Below, piece after piece: positions 3 through 17,325 of a DNA stretch of 20,000 nt. Under the pieces are notes generated by a model. That model was not told the origin of the DNA. It worked only from the letters and a program-made list of their open reading frames with translations, and ran no database searches. The position numbers and the translations under genes are program-made. How positions within the stretch are numbered: the stretch's first letter is position 1; each line of letters starts with the position of its first letter. This DNA comes from an uncultured virus (IMG/VR IMGVR_UViG_3300023105_000021) (lineage: Duplodnaviria > Heunggongvirae > Uroviricota > Caudoviricetes), in the IMG/VR virus record IMGVR_UViG_3300023105_000021; one strand, written 5' to 3'.

Positions 3-3000
3 AGTACCTGAAGGAATTTTTAATGCACCAGTAGTATTAAATTTTGTTCTGCCGCGGCTTGTATTTTTAATAGTTAATACATTTCCTGATGTGTTTTGTA
101 TCAATTCTCCGGACAAAGTAATATCGTCAATAACAAGATTTCCTGTTCCGTTAGCACGTAGTTCTAGATCTGCATTTGAATTTATTGTTGTAACTATATT
201 GCTATCTATAAAAACATCGTCAACAGTTAATCCACTAATGGTTATATTATCATTATTTACAGTTGCACGAAGATTCCCTCCAGTTACTAATGTAATTGTA
301 TTGTCCGTAGGATGAGCTGTAACGCGAGTACCTCTATTATCAGAATAAATACCACCAAATGAAATATTATTTTGATTATATCCTTCAAAACTTGATGTTA
401 TACTATTATAACGAATGCTATAATCTATATTTGGTCTTTCAGTAGACAAGCCAAAAGGTAGTTGTATTGCTGATGTACTAATTATATTAATATTATCTGT
501 TGCCAAAGTTATATCAGTTAAGCTAGTTGTCAAGGTATCAGAATTAAACAATAATTCTTGTAATTCTATATTACTGTTATCAAAAGTTCTTAACTCTAAA
601 TTAGAGTTGCTTTCAGTAGTTCTAATAACATTGTCAAAAATTTCAATATTAGAACTTATCAAAGCATTATTAAACTCAAAATTAGATCCTATAACTATAT
701 TACTAGAAGTTAAATCAGTTGCTTGTAAATTATTAGTAACTTCTAAGTTATTTGTTACTATATTACCAACACCATTTGCTGATAGTTCTAAATCACTGTT
801 TGAGTCTGTAGTTTCAATAAAATTATCGTTAAACAAAATGTTATCAAATTGTATTTCACTTTCTATATTTGTTGAACTTACAGTAACATTACCTATAACA
901 TTTAAATTACCTTGTTGAGTTGTATTTCCTGTTAGTGTTATATCTCCAACAATGTTTGTATTTTTTAAATTTGTTATTCCATTAACAGTTAAATTGTTTT
1001 CAATAACTACATTTTCTGGCAGTCGAACTATTTGGTTTTCCGAAGCACGTAATTCTAAATTTGCATTTGATATTGTAGTAGAAATAAAATTATCGTCAAT
1101 TTCTATAATGCTGTCAGTAATTACAATTTCATTAAGATTTAAATCTTGTTGTACTGTAATGTTGTTAGAAATAATACTAGCTGCAAATAAATCTTGTTTT
1201 GCTCGCATATTATTATTAGGTACTAAAATGTTTGCTGTTGAGTTTGCACGTAATTCAAGATTTGGACTATCATAATCGCCAAAGAATAAAACTGGATTAA
1301 AATATCCAGGAGTAGCATTTTCTAACGAAAGAATTTCTTCAGTAATAGGTTGTATAAAAGCATTATATTCAGGATCAGGAGTCTGACCATTTACAACATA
1401 CTGCAACCAAGCAATATAATCTGTAGTAGTTAATGTTCCGCTTTGGTTAACATCTACATAATTATTGTTTATAAAAAAGTTTACAAGATTTTTGTCTTGT
1501 TGATCTGTATAATCTGCTGCTGTTGCTCCGTTAACTATTGATTGTATAATTTTAGGAATAGAAGAATTATCTGAAGATTCTGTTGATAATCTTAGGCCTT
1601 CTGCTGTATTTTGTAGTATATTATTATCAATAGTTACTACAGGACCGATAAAATCACCTGTAGCTGTAAGTCCTCCAGCAACAACAGTATTTCCAGTTTG
1701 CGTTATATCTCCTGTTTGAGTTATATTGCCCGTTAAGTTAACATCAGTATAGTTAACATCAACAGGAGTAAAGGCAGTAACAAATCCGATATCTTCAAAT
1801 GCAGAAATATTGTCCCATTCAACAATAGTATCAACAGCACGGAAAATAATATCAATAGATGTAGTTTGTGGAACAAATGATGCTGTTAGCAATTGATCTG
1901 CAACTAGACCAGTAGTTTCATTCCATTCAAATAATGTACCAACACCAGATTCGAATATTCTTAAATAAAATGCATTTGCATTTGAAACACTTCTAAACTG
2001 TGCTTCAAAGTCATATGTTTTTCCAGGTTCGACTACAATCTCTTGTGATACGTTACGTGCAGCACCTGTAGCATCAATTCTTAAGTTTCCGTTAACAGAT
2101 GAAGCAGTGCCGCCACCTGCTTGAGCCCAACCATTTACATTTGTATTAAATGTTCCATTAATTACAAGCTCTGGGCCGTACTCATATGTTGTTGCACCAT
2201 TTTGTAAAAAGGTGTTTTTATTAACTACTAAATTATTTTCTAAATAAGCAGGACTTTCGATGTTTATAAATCCAGTTCCGCTTGCTCTTAGTTCTAAGTC
2301 TGCATTAGAAATATTTGTAGTAATATAATTTTGTGTAATGGTTATATCGGTTAGATCTGCATAATTAAATGCTGTTTGTAATGAAACATTTATATTATTG
2401 CTAGTAATATCATTAACTAATAAATTATTATTAACTTCCACATCATTAGGTATTAATACTTTGCCAGTACCGCTTGCACGTAATTCTAAATCTGCGTTTG
2501 AAGTAGTTGTAGTAATTACATTGCCATCAAATAATATTTCTTCAAATTGTACTGCACCAGTAATGTCTAAATCTCCATCAACATAAAAGTTTGTTGCAGT
2601 TCTATTACCGGTTTGATTAAATGTTCCTGCAGAATTAAAAATTCCTTGAAAATTTGTTGACTGTAAAGTAGTAAGACCATTAACATTTAAGTTATTATCA
2701 ATTTGTACATCGTTACTAGGAACATAAATTTCTCCAATTCCACTTGCACGTAATTCTAAATTTGCGTTTGATGTATCAGTTGTGATAACATTTCCATCTA
2801 TACTAATGTCTCCAACTTCTGTTTTGTTTAACCAAGCATTTAGCCAAGGACGCTGTACTTCTCCTAAACTATGTACAGTATGTTGATGAGGATTAAAATC
2901 TTGTTCAAATTCCACATTGAACACTAACCTGTCAGCAGCAGTATCTCTACCAGGTTGATCACCTGCAATATTTAATGTGCCGCCAAAACTAAAATTATTA

Positions 3001-4865
3001 ATAATATTTAAATTGCCGTTAACATTAGTATTATCGTTAAAATTAATAGTGTTTGTTCCGGCATCTAAATTTAATTCGTCAACTACACTTACAATTTCGT
3101 TATCTGATATTCTTATATTTCCGGTTGTTATATATGCGCCATCAATAACACTTGTTCCGCCGGGTGTATTAACAACTAACCCAGACAACGTTTCAATATC
3201 ACCTGTATTAATGTTTAAACTTGTATTACCTGTTTCAAAATTTACAAAGAAATTATCGCCAACTCTAAAGTTACCAACTTGGTCTGTGCTTACATAATGA
3301 ATTTGTCCTGAGTTTAATTCTACTACTTCATTTGCTTGTACAACTAAATCTAAATCGTTTGTTCTATCAGATCCTGCACCTATATACGCAAAGTTATGCT
3401 GTATCAGATACATTAGAGTATCAGCACCGTCTGCTACTGCACCGTATGTGCCGTAAACGTTTGCTGACCCAATTGAGCGCAATTCTGCACCATATATTAC
3501 TGTGCTGCCATCTTCACTTGTTCTGCCAGTTGCACCATTAAATGCATACAATCCTCTGTTTGCGAAATATGTAAAACTGTTTAGCCATTCTACTCTAACA
3601 CCGTTTGTCATATTAATAACATCAGCATTAGGTGAAATAAATGTACAACTATGAAATAGCATAGTAGCATTAGGACTTGCAGCATTTAATTCTGCACCGT
3701 CTATCCAAGCCCCTCTACCTGCATCTCCGTCTCCTGGATTTGTTTCTTGTGTTAGTACCGTTACATTTTGAATATAAGGACTGCGTTCGCTCATTACAGC
3801 ATTAGGTGCAAATCTAAATGCATATCCTTTATTGTTTACATTGTCATAGTAATGATTTTGAATAGTTAAATTAGCAATATTAGTTTTATCATTTAAATGA
3901 AAAACATCTTCACTCTGACTACTGGTATCTGGGGTGATAATAACATTACGTATGTCAGCACCAATAACAGATACATTAGATGGAACAACCAAAGGTAATG
4001 CTTCTTGATACTCTCCTGGTGATACTATAATTGTAAATGGCTGATCTCCACTAGCTTCTGCTTTAGAAAGTGCAGCCGAAATAGTTGCCATCGGATCAAG
4101 ATGATGATCACCACTATTATCGTCATTCCCTTCAACTGCAACAAATATTATGCCTCCGTGTTTTGTAAGAAGATTAACTCCGTTTAGGAAATATGCTTGT
4201 GTTCCTACTAATTGTCCGTTTAATAAATTTGTATATATAGAATTCCATATTTTTTGATCAGCACCTAAATTGTAAGTATCTGTAATATCAGGAATAATAT
4301 CAGAGTTAATGTCAGAATTAAATGTTACATCATCTGATGCTTGATCACCTAGTGTAATAGTTCCTTCAAAGGTAATATTACCCGGAGTATGCATATTACC
4401 AAAAACTTGTAAGTCTGCTTTTGTATCTGTAGTTGAATCATCATTTAAAAATCCATTACCGACTCTAACAGTTCCTGTTCCGTTAGGAGTAATATCTATG
4501 TCAGCATTTGATTCTACAGTTCTAATTGCATTATCATTAATTCTTATAGTACCATTATCTAATGTACTAAAAACAACAGCATCAGCTGCGTTTAAATAAA
4601 GATTACCTATTGTACTAAGTGTATTGTTATCAATAGTATATCCTGCTATATTAGAGAAATCGCTAATTAAATTTGTTGTTTGAAAAGTTTGAGATATTTC
4701 TAAATCAGTAGTTGGTGTAGAAGTATCAATACCAATCTTACTATTGTTAACATCTAGATATAAGAGCTGATTAGTATTAAGATCGTTGCGAAACGCAAGA
4801 TCAATGCCATCACGCAATAAGTTATCTTTTAAAAGAGGACCGGATATTCTACCTACTTGTGCCAC
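3..4865 (-). CDS. Very large virion fibre/spike-like structural protein (>=1621 aa, 3' end outside window) with beta-helix region, CBM-like domain and SNADLELRAxGTG repeats
   Basis: GTG at 4863-4865 with AAGGAG 7 nt upstream and a late promoter motif at 4886-4893. Translates as MAQVGRISGPLLKDNLLRDGIDLAF... and stays in the same frame to ...GALKIPSGT at the window edge. Its absence from the ORF track is consistent with having no stop inside the window. Contains a beta-helix cap motif (IFVAVEGNDDNSG...PMATISAAL...VSPGEYQE...VIGADIRNV) and LPFGLSTERP...IRYNSITSSFEGY, typical of fibre proteins of large aquatic myophages. Confidence 0.9.
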   Translation of the reverse strand, partial: MAQVGRISGPLLKDNLLRDGIDLAFRNDLNTNQLLYLDVNNSKIGIDTSTPTTDLEISQTFQTTNLISDFSNIAGYTIDNNTLSTIGNLYLNAADAVVFSTLDNGTIRINDNAIRTVESNADIDITPNGTGTVRVGNGFLNDDSTTDTKADLQVFGNMHTPGNITFEGTITLGDQASDDVTFNSDINSDIIPDITDTYNLGADQKIWNSIYTNLLNGQLVGTQAYFLNGVNLLTKHGGIIFVAVEGNDDNSGDHHLDPMATISAALSKAEASGDQPFTIIVSPGEYQEALPLVVPSNVSVIGADIRNVIITPDTSSQSEDVFHLNDKTNIANLTIQNHYYDNVNNKGYAFRFAPNAVMSERSPYIQNVTVLTQETNPGDGDAGRGAWIDGAELNAASPNATMLFHSCTFISPNADVINMTNGVRVEWLNSFTYFANRGLYAFNGATGRTSEDGSTVIYGAELRSIGSANVYGTYGAVADGADTLMYLIQHNFAYIGAGSDRTNDLDLVVQANEVVELNSGQIHYVSTDQVGNFRVGDNFFVNFETGNTSLNINTGDIETLSGLVVNTPGGTSVIDGAYITTGNIRISDNEIVSVVDELNLDAGTNTINFNDNTNVNGNLNIINNFSFGGTLNIAGDQPGRDTAADRLVFNVEFEQDFNPHQHTVHSLGEVQRPWLNAWLNKTEVGDISIDGNVITTDTSNANLELRASGIGEIYVPSNDVQIDNNLNVNGLTTLQSTNFQGIFNSAGTFNQTGNRTATNFYVDGDLDITGAVQFEEILFDGNVITTTTSNADLELRASGTGKVLIPNDVEVNNNLLVNDITSNNINVSLQTAFNYADLTDITITQNYITTNISNADLELRASGTGFINIESPAYLENNLVVNKNTFLQNGATTYEYGPELVINGTFNTNVNGWAQAGGGTASSVNGNLRIDATGAARNVSQEIVVEPGKTYDFEAQFRSVSNANAFYLRIFESGVGTLFEWNETTGLVADQLLTASFVPQTTSIDIIFRAVDTIVEWDNISAFEDIGFVTAFTPVDVNYTDVNLTGNITQTGDITQTGNTVVAGGLTATGDFIGPVVTIDNNILQNTAEGLRLSTESSDNSSIPKIIQSIVNGATAADYTDQQDKNLVNFFINNNYVDVNQSGTLTTTDYIAWLQYVVNGQTPDPEYNAFIQPITEEILSLENATPGYFNPVLFFGDYDSPNLELRANSTANILVPNNNMRAKQDLFAASIISNNITVQQDLNLNEIVITDSIIEIDDNFISTTISNANLELRASENQIVRLPENVVIENNLTVNGITNLKNTNIVGDITLTGNTTQQGNLNVIGNVTVSSTNIESEIQFDNILFNDNFIETTDSNSDLELSANGVGNIVTNNLEVTNNLQATDLTSSNIVIGSNFEFNNALISSNIEIFDNVIRTTESNSNLELRTFDNSNIELQELLFNSDTLTTSLTDITLATDNINIISTSAIQLPFGLSTERPNIDYSIRYNSITSSFEGYNQNNISFGGIYSDNRGTRVTAHPTDNTITLVTGGNLRATVNNDNITISGLTVDDVFIDSNIVTTINSNADLELRANGTGNLVIDDITLSGELIQNTSGNVLTIKNTSRGRTKFNTTGALKIPSGT
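141..4511 (-). repeat. Dispersed protein-level repeat (I/V)xTxxSN(A/S)(D/N)LELRAxG(T/I/V)G, about 9 copies
   Basis: Copies near 141-180, 588-611, 770-803, 1041-1070, 1241-1266, 2271-2309, 2463-2501, 2733-2771 and a degenerate one (SNADIDITPNGTG) at 4472-4511. The DNA core gcacgtaattc recurs in four of them. Confidence 0.85.
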
Positions 4866-7263: not shown

Positions 7264-7653
7264 TTAGATTGCAGTTAATACTAGTACGTTTGCTGTTGAA
7301 TCGTCAGTAACAGTCCATGTATAACGATTGTTATTAAAATCAAACATTGTACGGTTGTGTACTTTACGAATGTTTACAGCACTTTCTCCGGCTACAAAAC
7401 CTTGTAGAACCATTTCGTTAGCTGCTAGTGATCCAATTGCTTTGTCAACTAGTGTACATACACCTGTGTTACCTGATGTTCCATCTGGATCATCGTGACA
7501 GTTAAATTTTGTTTCTGAGCGTTGTGATAAAATTACACCGTTGCCAACTGCTGCGTTAGCACCAATTTTACACATTACTGTTAGGTTATTACCTTCAGTA
7601 CCTGCTGAACCTTCAGTAGCACCAAAGTATCTTTTGTTTAATGGGCGTCCCAT
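7264..7653 (-). CDS. Hypothetical protein (MGRPLNKRYFG...), probably an abundant virion component, 129 aa
   Basis: ORF track. Strong AAAGGAG RBS, own late promoter, structured leader and terminator (monocistronic unit), next to the capsid gene. Confidence 0.8.
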   Translation of the reverse strand: MGRPLNKRYFGATEGSAGTEGNNLTVMCKIGANAAVGNGVILSQRSETKFNCHDDPDGTSGNTGVCTLVDKAIGSLAANEMVLQGFVAGESAVNIRKVHNRTMFDFNNNRYTWTVTDDSTANVLVLTAI

Positions 7654-7674
7654 AATTATCTCCTTTGTTTAATC

Positions 7675-7742
7675 ATTGCCGTTCTAGGGTCTACGCGGTG
7701 AGTTTCCGCATAAGTCCTCAATAGAGGCTCCTATATGACAAT
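7675..7742 (-). promoter_or_regulatory. Structured 5' leader (three-way junction) of the 129-aa gene
   Basis: Minus strand: AUUGUC/GGCAAU and UAGG/CCUA enclose hairpins CCUC-UAUU-GAGG and UAUGCGG-AAACUCA-CCGCGUA. The G-U pairs work only on the minus strand. Confidence 0.6.
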
Positions 7743-7744
7743 AG

Positions 7745-7752
7745 TATTTATC
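7745..7752 (-). promoter_or_regulatory. T4-type late promoter (GATAAATA)
   Basis: Lies immediately upstream of the structured leader and downstream of a terminator. Confidence 0.7.
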
Positions 7753-7759
7753 CAAAGAG

Positions 7760-7784
7760 AAAAAAGCCCGCACAGTGGCGGGCT
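7760..7784 (-). terminator. Intrinsic terminator of the upstream ncRNA
   Basis: Minus strand AGCCCG-CCACTGTG-CGGGCT followed by a T run (TTTTTCTCTTT). Confidence 0.85.
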
Positions 7785-7790
7785 CTAAGA

Positions 7791-8007
7791 ATAAGCAAAA
7801 TAGGTAGGACTCGGTTACACCTACAAGCCGCGGACCAAATACCATTTCATCTCCGCAACAACCTGCTTCCGCTCGGTAGAGCGATGTGACACTGCCTGTT
7901 TCCAGTACAACGCCTGGGTACCACCCCTAAGCAGTCAAGTTCGACGCTCTGGTAAACGCCTCTTCCTTGCACTATAAACATTGACTAGCTAAGTCTTTGT
8001 TGCTTAT
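7791..8007 (-). ncRNA. Stand-alone ~220-nt structured RNA, family unassigned (manA-motif-like candidate)
   Basis: GC-rich and ORF-free, flanked by a sigma70-type promoter and a terminator. 5' AUAAGCAA pairs with 3' UUGCUUAU. Internal helices include CUGCUU/AAGCAG, CGCUC-UACC-GAGCG, GUUGCGGA/UCCGCGGC, GUAGG/CCUAC and CUG-GAAA-CAG. Confidence 0.75.
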
Positions 8008-8013
8008 GTTATT

Positions 8014-8041
8014 AATATAACATCTTTATAGTAAAAGTCAA
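8014..8041 (-). promoter_or_regulatory. Sigma70-type (early/host RNAP) promoter driving the ncRNA
   Basis: TTGACT, 16-nt spacer ending in TGn, then TATATT (extended -10). The predicted start near 8007 coincides with the 5' strand of the RNA closing stem. Confidence 0.7.
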
Positions 8042-8095
8042 CCACTTTTTATAGAAAATTAATGATTTTCTGCAAGATTTTTTTTAAAAAGTGTG

Positions 8096-8103
8096 TTTAA
8101 ATA
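8096..8103 (+). promoter_or_regulatory. Late-type promoter (TTTAAATA) upstream of pqqA
   Basis: TAAATA core as in the other late promoters, 7 nt upstream of the AAAGGAG RBS at 8111-8117. Confidence 0.55.
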
Positions 8104-8123
8104 ATAGTTGAAAGGAGAGCATT

Positions 8124-8195
8124 ATGTGGACAAAACCTAGCTATACTGAAATGCGTTTTGGCTTTGAAGTTACAATGTATGTAATGAACAAGTAA
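8124..8195 (+). CDS. pqqA: Pyrroloquinoline quinone precursor peptide PqqA, 23 aa (MWTKPSYTEMRFGFEVTMYVMNK)
   Basis: Read directly: ATG 8124 to TAA 8195, with AAAGGAG 6 nt upstream. Matches the PqqA pattern MWxxP....RxGFEVTxY including the E15-x-x-x-Y19 pair from which PQQ is made. Too short for the ORF track. Confidence 0.93.
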   Translation: MWTKPSYTEMRFGFEVTMYVMNK

Positions 8196-8205
8196 AAATG
8201 TAGTC

Positions 8206-8233
8206 AAAAAAATAGGCCCCGTAGGGCCTATTT
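8206..8233. terminator. Terminator between convergent gp23 and pqqA, probably bidirectional
   Basis: Perfect 10-bp stem AAATAGGCCC/GGGCCTATTT. On the minus strand it has a cUACGg tetraloop and a 7-T run. On the plus strand it ends in TTT followed by CTAGTTTTT. Confidence 0.85.
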
Positions 8234-8254
8234 CTAGTTTTTTACAACTATAAC

Positions 8255-9430
8255 TTAGCTAAATGTTACGCCTGCGGCGATATCAACTTTACCTAAGTAG
8301 TCAGCTGCGTTACCTAGTGATGACGCAGTGTTTGTAAGCTCAACATAACCATAACGTGTCATAAATGATACTGTTGGTTCGAATGTTGATGGATCTAGTA
8401 CAACACCTGAGCTCATTAGTGGGATATATGGGCAGTAGAACGCTGCTGCGTCTGACTCGCTTGATCCTTTATAACCAATAAGAACTGGTGCAGTATCTGA
8501 TGCATATGTGTTAACATATACTTTCATTGCGTTGTTCAATGTACCAACCATTTTTGTGTTAGTTGGTGCTTCGAATGTACCTTCTGTTGTACGAGCGAAC
8601 GCTGAAGTAGTTGCTGACTGTAGGATTGTTAGCGCGAATGGGCTAACAACTGCCCAGTTACCAGCACCACGTCTTGTACGCTGTGCAATCAAGTTTGATA
8701 CTCTGTTGATTTGAACTGCTAGTGCAGCATGTTCGTCACCAACAAAAGTAGCTGTACCTGAAACGGCTGTTTGATCATAAGTTTCAGTAGCAGCGCCTGC
8801 TAGTGAACTTAGTGAGCCTAGTACTTCTTGGTCGATTTCAGCAGTAATCTCTTGAGCAAGTGCTGCCATGATTTCTGCTTCAACGTCAATACCGTGCTGT
8901 GATTGAGCATCTTGTGCCGCTTCGAATGTCCAGCGAGCTGATAGCTTTCTGGTTTTCGCTTCGACAGTTTGTTTCAAGATTTGGATTGACATTCTGTTAC
9001 CAGCCTGTCCTTCAAGTGCTGCTGTTGCCGCTGCGCGGTCAGTTGCTGCATCACCTGAATATCCTTCTGCAATCTTGAACGGTGATAGTGCTTCTTCACC
9101 AGCAGTAGCTGAAGTGCCACCTGTGCTAGTAAAGTCGTCGCTATAACGTACTCTTAGTGTGTGGATTTGACCCACTGGACCTGTCATTGGCTGAACACCA
9201 ACCAACTCGTTTGCAATAACGGTTGGCATAACACGTCTGATAACTGGTAGGATAACTCTGTTTAGAGTTGCTACATTACCGGCAGAAGTTGCACCAGCTG
9301 TTGCTGATTCTGAAAGATACTTACGAGTATTTTCTAGAGTCGCTTCCATAACAGCTTTCTTGTTGCCTTTTAGGCCTTCAACAAGTGCAGTCTTAGTGTC
9401 CTGCCAGCGACTTTCTAATAGTTCTGACAT
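8255..9430 (-). CDS. gp23: Major capsid protein, T4 gp23-like, 391 aa
   Basis: Hallmark motifs VIRRVMPTVIANELVGVQPMTGPVGQI, VEAKTRKLSARWTFEAAQD, EITAEIDQE, GYKGSSESDAAAFYCPYIPL, DPSTFEPTVSFMTRYG. AGGAG RBS, downstream of protease and scaffold. Confidence 0.97.
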   Translation of the reverse strand: MSELLESRWQDTKTALVEGLKGNKKAVMEATLENTRKYLSESATAGATSAGNVATLNRVILPVIRRVMPTVIANELVGVQPMTGPVGQIHTLRVRYSDDFTSTGGTSATAGEEALSPFKIAEGYSGDAATDRAAATAALEGQAGNRMSIQILKQTVEAKTRKLSARWTFEAAQDAQSQHGIDVEAEIMAALAQEITAEIDQEVLGSLSSLAGAATETYDQTAVSGTATFVGDEHAALAVQINRVSNLIAQRTRRGAGNWAVVSPFALTILQSATTSAFARTTEGTFEAPTNTKMVGTLNNAMKVYVNTYASDTAPVLIGYKGSSESDAAAFYCPYIPLMSSGVVLDPSTFEPTVSFMTRYGYVELTNTASSLGNAADYLGKVDIAAGVTFS

Positions 9431-9446
9431 TTTGATTTCTCCTATA

Positions 9447-10547
9447 TTATAATCCAGCTAGACGCTTAATGTCAATGACATTACCGTCTGCGCCTGCTTG
9501 TGAACTAACGTTAGTTTGCGAATATTCGCGGTTGCCTGTAACTTCTTTGCCTTCTGCTAAAACTGCCTTCTTCTTAGCCGGAGTATTACCGTCGATTACC
9601 GCCGGTAGGTATTTGTCAAACGCAGACTGAAGTCTGTCTGTTTGTACTGATTCCAGTAAGTCTGTCATAATTTCACGTTGAGCTTTGCCTAATGGCGCAA
9701 CTAAATCGTTCAATTTCTTTTCTCTCTTTGCAGATTCAATTAATACAGCTTTTTCTTTTACTGCTGACTCTGCAAGCACTTTTGCTTTGACAGCTAACGC
9801 TTTATTTTCATTGATCTGTTTATCTTTAGTTTCAATAACTTTCAATAATTTTGCAGTCTCTGATTTTTCGTTTAAGTAGCTGTTTGCATATTCTGAAGCA
9901 AAAGCTTCGAATACTTTACGACCGAAGTCGTTTTTACGTGCTGCTTCAATGTCATCTTTAAGTTGACTAATTTCTTTATTAAGATTTTTACCAACTGTTT
10001 CTGACACCAAGTTTGCACTTTTAGCAACAAATTCTTTTTGAACTGCTGCAAATTTTTCTTTGGCTTCGCGTACAAGACGTACTTTAGTTTCAGCCAAGTC
10101 TTTTTTATCTTCGTAAAACTCTGCAATTTCTTTTGCAAGTGCTTCTACCACAAATTCTTCAAGTTGTGTGAACTTTTGTGCTACTGCTTTTTGATCTTCG
10201 TGAAGTTCGCTAACTTCTTTCTTTAGCGATTCTAATACAAAGTTTTTAAGTAGAGTTGCATTTTCACGTTGTGCAACAGCATATTTTGCTTTTGCTTCAG
10301 CTAGACCTTTACGATCTTCTGCAAACTCTGCAAGCTCTGAACTAAGACGCTCTTCTAATAGCTTGTCAATTGACTCTACCATAGTTTGTTTGTCATGTTC
10401 ATATTTCTTTGCAAATTCTTCACGAAGTTCAGCTGTAGCTGCACGACGGTTTTCTTTAACCTTCGCGTTCCACGCTTCTTCGATTTCGTGACGCACTTCT
10501 TCTGAAACTACATCGTTTTCGAAAAGTGTTTTTAGTGCATCCAACAT
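9447..10547 (-). CDS. gp22: Prohead core scaffolding protein, T4 gp22-like, 366 aa
   Basis: E/K/A/L-rich coiled-coil protein between protease and MCP, with many LxE potential cleavage sites and an AAGGAG RBS. Confidence 0.8.
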   Translation of the reverse strand: MLDALKTLFENDVVSEEVRHEIEEAWNAKVKENRRAATAELREEFAKKYEHDKQTMVESIDKLLEERLSSELAEFAEDRKGLAEAKAKYAVAQRENATLLKNFVLESLKKEVSELHEDQKAVAQKFTQLEEFVVEALAKEIAEFYEDKKDLAETKVRLVREAKEKFAAVQKEFVAKSANLVSETVGKNLNKEISQLKDDIEAARKNDFGRKVFEAFASEYANSYLNEKSETAKLLKVIETKDKQINENKALAVKAKVLAESAVKEKAVLIESAKREKKLNDLVAPLGKAQREIMTDLLESVQTDRLQSAFDKYLPAVIDGNTPAKKKAVLAEGKEVTGNREYSQTNVSSQAGADGNVIDIKRLAGL

Positions 10548-17317: not shown

Positions 17318-17325
17318 TATAAATA
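17318..17325 (+). promoter_or_regulatory. T4 late promoter, perfect consensus TATAAATA
   Basis: Exact match 36 nt upstream of the gp26-like ATG. Confidence 0.8.

Follow-up and report, generated by a model that had tools for sequence, protein, structure and literature searches.

What does a phage gain from a gene for PqqA, the peptide from which the cofactor PQQ is made, when that gene stands by itself beside the gene for the major capsid protein, and is the gene what it appears to be? The DNA considered here (the window, 20,000 nucleotides) is the final 20 kb of a 98,563-base IMG/VR virus record, which has a GC content of 35.9% and a CheckV completeness of 28%. A preliminary description of the window had pointed to a phage-encoded 23-codon pqqA with a strong ribosome-binding site (RBS), a late-type promoter motif and a terminator, convergent with gp23. 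Apart from the promoter, these features were found as described. On the plus strand, pqqA runs from 8124 to 8195 (ATG, the 23 codons MWTKPSYTEMRFGFEVTMYVMNK and TAA) and is preceded, six bases 5′ of the ATG, by the Shine-Dalgarno sequence AAGGAG (8112..8117, +). Facing it on the minus strand is gp23 (8255..9430). Between the two genes, positions 8210..8233 form a hairpin of 10 pairs, flanked on the plus strand by an A-run on its 5′ side and a T-run on its 3′ side, which should make it a bidirectional intrinsic terminator common to pqqA and gp23. The predicted folding energy is −15.2 kcal/mol on the plus strand and −21.7 kcal/mol on the minus strand (z −4.0 and −4.8, respectively), and none of 200 shuffled sequences folds as stably.

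The identity of the peptide is equally clear. It far exceeds the cut-offs of both curated PqqA profiles, scoring 46 bits against Pfam PqqA (PF08042; cut-off 21.1, E 4.5e-12), with all 19 profile positions matched, and 47 bits against the NCBIfam equivalog TIGR02107 (cut-off 20, E 1.5e-12), so that family membership is well beyond chance, as the preliminary description had supposed. It is also the one PqqA match in the 98.5-kb record. PqqA peptides are short (~20–40 residues) and carry an N-terminal leader (W-x-K-P) that serves PqqD, together with the Glu and the Tyr that are cross-linked in PQQ biogenesis. In the 23-residue window peptide, these last two are Glu15 and Tyr19, within E15-V-T-M-Y19, and the E-x-x-x-Y pair that had been recognized earlier is invariant both in nine aligned copies and in all 67 distinct viral sequences. 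Also invariant across the nine aligned copies are W2, T3, P5, R11, and the whole of G13–Y19; in the leader, K4 is nearly so. No PHROGs family was assigned to the gene. Rfam gave no match in the window at gathering thresholds, and the best matches below threshold that overlap the pqqA unit have E > 4 and do not explain it. The window thus contains a genuine pqqA, confirmed as intact and conserved.

That the gene is phage encoded, as first proposed, is borne out by its surroundings. On one side of pqqA are gp23 (Pfam Gp23, E 2.9e-99), a prohead protease, a T4-type portal and baseplate genes, and on the other are phage ORFs and tail genes, beginning with a conserved 129-aa ORF (orf129; 7264..7653, −) that has no Pfam or PHROG match. 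Farther upstream in the record are genes for terminase, tail sheath, gp32, a UvsX/RecA-like protein, and many sugar/LPS-pathway functions. The capsid DNA is ~69% identical to that of 340–380-kb enterobacterial jumbo phages and a 287-kb Pseudomonas phage. Judged by gene content and capsid sequence, the record is a fragment of a T4-like jumbo phage. With phage genes on both flanks, pqqA is a host-derived metabolic gene within a bona fide phage genome, which is what defines an auxiliary metabolic gene (AMG).

Is the rest of the PQQ pathway encoded nearby? Six-frame searches of the whole 98,563-base record (~28% complete) found no pqqB, C, D, or E, extending to the entire record the earlier statement that the window holds no other pqq gene, and likewise yielded neither a PQQ-dependent alcohol dehydrogenase nor a methanol dehydrogenase. 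Neither pqqB–E nor methanol dehydrogenase was detected in five other viral records; all of these records, the present one included, are fragments (13–84% complete). Because the records searched are fragments, these results do not imply that the genes are absent from the complete phages. Nor does the lack of an operon with pqqB–E disqualify the window pqqA, as 64 of the 79 closest bacterial copies are also orphans, located away from pqqBCDE, and so are the majority of pqqA copies in Methylophilaceae. Pfam was run on 60 of the 63 called ORFs of at least 60 aa outside the window, with giant ORFs of 3740, 2616, and 1577 aa omitted, and on 14 further ORFs within the window, with a 1679-aa ORF that straddles the window start left out; the six-frame searches for pqq families and methanol dehydrogenase also covered the giant ORFs omitted from the Pfam scan. 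These four very long ORFs lie in a row on the minus strand (G000:C1 53669–64891, 64924–72774, and 73527–78260, and window 3–4865). Two regions outside the window (G000:C1 2454–19804 and 42906–48308) hold envelope sugar genes, which encode CMP-KDO-synthetase-like and KDO-8-phosphate-synthase-like proteins, two sulfotransferases, a heptose kinase/adenylyltransferase, an epimerase, a carbamoyltransferase, a GT25 glycosyltransferase, and several 2OG-Fe(II) oxygenases.

The place of pqqA beside the capsid gene is a stable feature of related phages. Among the best 80 of at least 592 IMG/VR loci, a gp23 homologue with between 100% and 33% capsid identity adjoins pqqA in nine. All nine loci agree with the window in having pqqA between gp23 and the gene that follows, which in L015–L019 is a homologue of orf129. 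What differs is orientation: pqqA has the same direction as gp23 in L016, L018, L019, L035, L045, L047, and L023 and is reversed relative to gp23 in the window, L015, and L017. When intergenic regions were compared by BLAST with the relatives oriented on gp23, window positions ~8055–8211 aligned in inverted orientation to L016, L018, L019, L035, L045, and L023, and the flanks, which comprise the terminator of the capsid gene and the next unit's promoter, remained collinear. Several relatives have a hairpin of their own downstream of pqqA; the window copy uses the capsid terminator. We delimit the inverted segment as a cassette of ~140 nt (8058..8199, +; boundaries approximate) containing the upstream region, the RBS, and the ORF. 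From these alignments, the slot beside gp23 is fixed in the T4-like lineage, and the cassette's orientation is flipped in the sub-lineage of the window. The idea of a self-contained unit therefore proves right, since a segment of this size inverts between close relatives while its position is kept. Two ORFs of 184 and 202 aa take the place of an unbroken gp23 homologue in L018 (2246–3412), which may reflect a sequencing error or a genuine break. The pqqA of L083 (3938–5069), an unrelated 53-kb type of phage that has a GroES-like gene, immediately follows the major head gene and shares its strand.

The proposed late promoter fared less well. The site at 8096–8103 reads TTTAAATA, which has one mismatch to TATAAATA, the T4 late promoter consensus. 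As no exact TATAAATA occurs near the gene, an exact T4 late promoter for pqqA was ruled out; moreover, TTTAAATA is found 25 times in the 98.5-kb record, mostly within ORFs. What does stand is a conserved near match: the longer promoter-like motif TTTAAATAATA (8096..8106, +) is present 28–51 nt 5′ of the pqqA ATG in nine of ten loci of the window's T4-like lineage and upstream of pqqA in none of the 78 other viral copies and none of the 93 bacterial copies examined. The exact consensus occurs five times in the record, four of these being intergenic and 13–61 nt before a start codon; the four gene starts concerned are preceded by the sites at window 17318–17325 (+) and G000:C1 313, 22672, and 49312. 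By this measure, the phage appears to use the exact late consensus elsewhere, and the motif upstream of pqqA is only a near match.

How widespread is pqqA in phages? The preliminary description had suggested a tblastn search, and when the peptide was compared with 50,697 phage records, 12 matched. Nine are Methylophilales/Methylophilaceae phages (Venkman, P19250A, MEP301, MEP401, MEP402, and four Melnitz records), among them sipho-, podo-, and myophages; one is an uncultured podophage from spring water (freshwater); and two, wrongly labelled as phage, are contigs of bacteria and contain pqqBCDE. The latter, both named "Acinetobacter phage MD-2021a" (L013, CAKLQF020000010.1, and CAKLQH020000055.1), are bacterial; L013 carries polyphosphate kinase and pqqA-B-C-D-E. 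Presence of the gene in all cultured methylophages refers to the nine of nine records returned by our searches; named phages outside these returns are HIM624-A (a partial genome), MEP431–434, Venkman EXVC038S, MG-MTP1, and RSA-MFP1. Each of the seven GenBank phage records inspected has an intact pqqA with an RBS, and none annotates it on its own strand, in keeping with the earlier remark that it is too short for standard gene callers. Because both these gene callers and PHROGs miss pqqA, inventories of AMGs in methylotroph phages are incomplete. Apart from pqqA, the methylophages that carry it have no DNA sequence in common. In IMG/VR, at least 592 stretches encode a PqqA relative, and the best 80 of these, with seven GenBank phage loci and the window added, form 17 context groups. 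PHROGs found phage genes in all 13 of the group representatives scanned, and none of the best 80 of the at least 592 viral loci has pqqB–E near pqqA.

Viral PqqA in T4-like Methylophilaceae phages is not new, as it has been in print since the study of Coutinho et al. (2020; Microbiome 8:163, PMC7678222), who describe PqqA and methanol dehydrogenase in T4-like viral populations of 35% GC with predicted Methylophilaceae hosts and propose PqqA as an AMG for methanol oxidation, the same role as here. Like the window, the Lake Baikal population VP_266 of that study is T4-like, has ~35% GC and a predicted Methylophilaceae host, and carries PqqA as an AMG. The Baikal populations also encode methanol dehydrogenase and radical-SAM genes, none of which was found in the window's ~28%-complete 98.5-kb fragment. 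Their account, with which we compare by description only, does not deal with the anatomy of the cassette, its position at gp23, or its inversion; what is added here, modestly, is the constant location next to the capsid gene, the cassette's change of direction, and an upstream motif confined to the lineage. The same authors say of P19250A that it encodes none of the methylotrophy AMGs considered (Coutinho et al., 2020). This statement is contradicted by an intact, unannotated pqqA in P19250A (L008 2501–2569, corresponding to 28085–28153 of the record, −) and needs correcting. Viral pqqA, pqqE, and pqqD are among the AMGs listed in a study of sediment from 2026 (PMC13188868). Our literature search, which covered articles outside subscription journals and their text outside supplements, returned reports of viral pqqA only in PMC7678222 and PMC13188868, and it yielded no paper noting pqqA in cultured methylophages. 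The string "pqq" is absent from the MEP301 and MEP401/402 papers and the mBio 2026 paper on MG-MTP1 and RSA-MFP1, and in the Melnitz paper PQQ appears solely as a supplement to the growth medium.

Comparison with other pqqA genes places the window copy more precisely. Cultured Methylophilales phages (Venkman, P19250A, MEP301, MEP401, MEP402, and Melnitz) resemble it in having an intact orphan pqqA of 23–24 codons with an RBS, and their peptides are 74–96% identical to the window peptide. However, they represent unrelated genome types with unshared flanks, and their pqqA is located in the replication module, at the genome end, or beside tRNA-Leu. The orphan pqqA genes of Methylophilaceae chromosomes also stand alone, encode the same 23-residue family with up to 91% peptide identity, and have a leader bearing a Shine-Dalgarno sequence, but they are chromosomal, lack TTTAAATAATA (0 of 93), and reach a nucleotide identity of 61/69 at best. 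The PqqA of a canonical pqqABCDE operon, as on the Acinetobacter-type contig L013, belongs to the same Pfam/TIGRFAM family and has the W-x-K-P leader and E-V-T-M-Y core; unlike the window gene, it is encoded directly upstream of pqqB–E, and it is 61% identical to the window peptide.

A further claim of the preliminary description, a Methylophilaceae link, is supported by the bacterial sequences. A search pattern built from the phage alignment was applied to one genome per species, and the 79 best bacterial loci were examined. By a tally of titles, 57 of the 79 are of Methylophilaceae type (Methylophilus, Methylotenera, Methylobacillus, Ca. Methylopumilus, Methylophilaceae, or Methylophilales), and the remaining 22 have broader or other names. 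Nineteen viral copies are identical to the commonest Methylophilaceae peptide. The variant found in the window, with Ser6 and Tyr7, occurs in six viral loci and in none of the 79. Based on peptide similarity, the host of the window phage is most likely a member of the Methylophilaceae. Four host genomes have 2–6 pqqA matches each, and PqqC scores above the cut-off in 78 of 81 Methylophilaceae-family genomes, including those of 1.3 Mb, indicating that the PqqC model works. According to Beck et al. (2014; PMC4109929), Methylophilaceae carry 3–12 copies of pqqA and a single pqqBCDE set. The host family is thus equipped with the enzymes to use the peptide.

What, then, might the phage copy do? We consider it likely that the pqqA of this lytic T4-like jumbo phage, which probably infects Methylophilaceae, is a substrate-only AMG that feeds the PqqD, PqqE, PqqB, and PqqC of the host. 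Its arrangement suggests that the cassette would be transcribed from its own upstream region, that transcripts would end at the hairpin shared with gp23, and that the 23-residue peptide would be translated from the strong RBS during infection. The route from PqqA to PQQ by way of PqqD, PqqE, peptidases, PqqB, and PqqC is an established pathway. Applied to the phage peptide, host PqqD would bind it, host PqqE would cross-link Glu15 to Tyr19, and host peptidases, PqqB, and PqqC would then complete PQQ, one peptide being spent for each PQQ. The phage copy could in this way keep up or raise the supply of peptide, and hence of PQQ for the periplasmic methanol dehydrogenase, while host expression declines, and the sustained PQQ would provide energy and carbon flow for phage replication. 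Since PqqA is used stoichiometrically and the hosts multiply only pqqA, supply of the precursor is a plausible control point. There is an analogy with cyanophage psbA, where the phage supplies a rapidly consumed part of the host energy system (D1) and not the whole machinery, but D1 is a 39-kDa structural subunit, whereas PqqA has 23 residues and, as the precursor of a small-molecule cofactor, is destroyed in the process. Two points count against the precursor-supply model: PQQ is a stable, reusable cofactor, and neither the 98.5-kb fragment nor the five other viral records, all incomplete, were found to carry a methanol dehydrogenase that would need new cofactor.

Public RNA libraries were compared with the region. 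About half of the words of positions 7600–9500 are contained in 11 RNA-library runs. Among contigs on the region from three RNA runs and one DNA run, summed depth peaked in the bin containing pqqA (8124–8200) for two of the three RNA runs; this depth mixes in pqqA genes from other organisms, as loose ends at 8145 mark other 5′ flanks. The phage-specific bins on either side (8047–8123 and 8201–8277) are almost empty in the RNA-library contigs, and 8047–8123 is so even in the DNA run. RNA-library contigs match gp23 with 0 mismatches, and DNA carry-over is possible.

Three other explanations of the locus were weighed. One is that the pqqA segment is host DNA joined to the phage by mis-assembly, or host contamination of a viral bin; PqqA is otherwise bacterial, and the two public "phage" records with pqqABCDE did prove to be bacterial contigs. 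However, the same gp23-pqqA-orf129 junctions recur in nine other IMG/VR contigs, two of them with a 100% identical capsid gene, so the chimera that the preliminary description had named as a danger is not seen. Similarity to bacteria is confined to the RBS and ORF (8100–8210 at most, 82–88% identity), the flanks of pqqA are phage-specific and conserved among relatives, and no bacterial gene adjoins pqqA anywhere in the 98.5-kb record; this explanation is effectively refuted. Could it instead be the DNA or RNA that is conserved, as a homology patch for recombination or integration or as a small RNA mimicking the host pqqA transcript? With 2–12 dispersed pqqA copies, hosts do offer many recombination targets, and some carriers (MEP301-like loci) encode recombinase- or integrase-like proteins. 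Yet among the 67 distinct viral nucleotide sequences, a set picked by amino-acid similarity and thus biased towards conservation, synonymous sites are nearly saturated (pS 0.54) and the peptide is kept (pN 0.047; pN/pS 0.087). ATG and stop are intact in all 88 viral loci, which were likewise picked by similarity, leaving no sign of the frame disruption in related phages that would have spoken against the gene, and an SD-like core lies at −16..−4 in 87 of the 88. A peptide that stays fixed while synonymous change nears saturation speaks for translation, not for a role of the DNA or RNA only. Moreover, the 61 of 69 nucleotides that the best bacterial copy shares with the window gene would make it a poor partner for homologous recombination, and the carriers include T4-like lytic phages. 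We therefore regard a role of the nucleic acid itself as very improbable.

It is harder to set aside a peptide that is made without raising PQQ, whether a decoy or regulator that ties up host PqqD, PqqE, or another partner, or a neutral "moron" passenger, although this too seems unlikely to us. No experiment ties any viral pqqA to PQQ levels, leader positions 4 and 6–8 vary between phages, and the window peptide with its Ser6 and Tyr7 has no counterpart in the best bacterial loci. But a viral copy that matches the commonest host peptide residue for residue can be no different from the natural substrate, and bacterial copies vary at the same leader positions: in viruses as in bacteria, residues 9–19 are almost invariant and change is concentrated at positions 4 and 6–8. 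A pN/pS of 0.109 for 78 bacterial sequences, in a set selected in the same way, can be placed beside the viral value, and a neutral passenger would neither give that viral value nor recur in 17 context groups. For this set, which was pre-selected on similarity, the substitution pattern is that of a viral gene under strong purifying selection.

Provision of substrate to the host pathway, the reading that we prefer, has consequences beyond this phage. With 69 coding bases, pqqA is probably among the smallest AMGs, and if the reading holds, it would show plainly how a phage can contribute to a host pathway nothing but the substrate that the pathway consumes. More tentatively, and with slightly less than even confidence, we suggest that pqqA, as a portable mini-cassette of 23 codons with an RBS and a promoter-like motif, has been captured or exchanged again and again by unrelated Methylophilaceae phages, making it a near-universal hallmark of "methylophages," and that the precursor peptide, rather than the enzymes, limits PQQ in infected methylotrophs. 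In that event, methanol oxidation during infection would be limited through the supply of PQQ precursor, and pqqA would be a practical marker for predicting the hosts of uncultured viral contigs. In OM43, LD28, and other Methylophilaceae, which abound in coastal seas and lakes, methanol enters metabolism through PQQ-dependent (XoxF/Mxa) methanol dehydrogenase. If phages sustain PQQ synthesis with a 69-base gene, infection would directly modulate methanol turnover.

Finally, we note two RNA-like elements between orf129 and the cassette, both with scores below the Rfam gathering score. A match to freshwater-2 RNA (RF02980) at 7651–7728 (−; 45.3 bits, gathering score 49.9, E 1.2e-5) ends in the RBS and ATG of the 129-aa ORF and is probably the leader of that gene. 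A full-length match to manA RNA (RF01745) at 7794–7994 (−; 49.8 bits, gathering score 55.2, E 1e-11) has its own sigma-70-like promoter (TTGACT-16-TATATT, 8041–8014) and terminator (7786–7763). This manA-like stretch shows 93% identity to the corresponding sequence of the relative L019 and 77% to a region of Pelagibacter phage Mosig that bears no annotation, and it is covered by RNA-library contigs.
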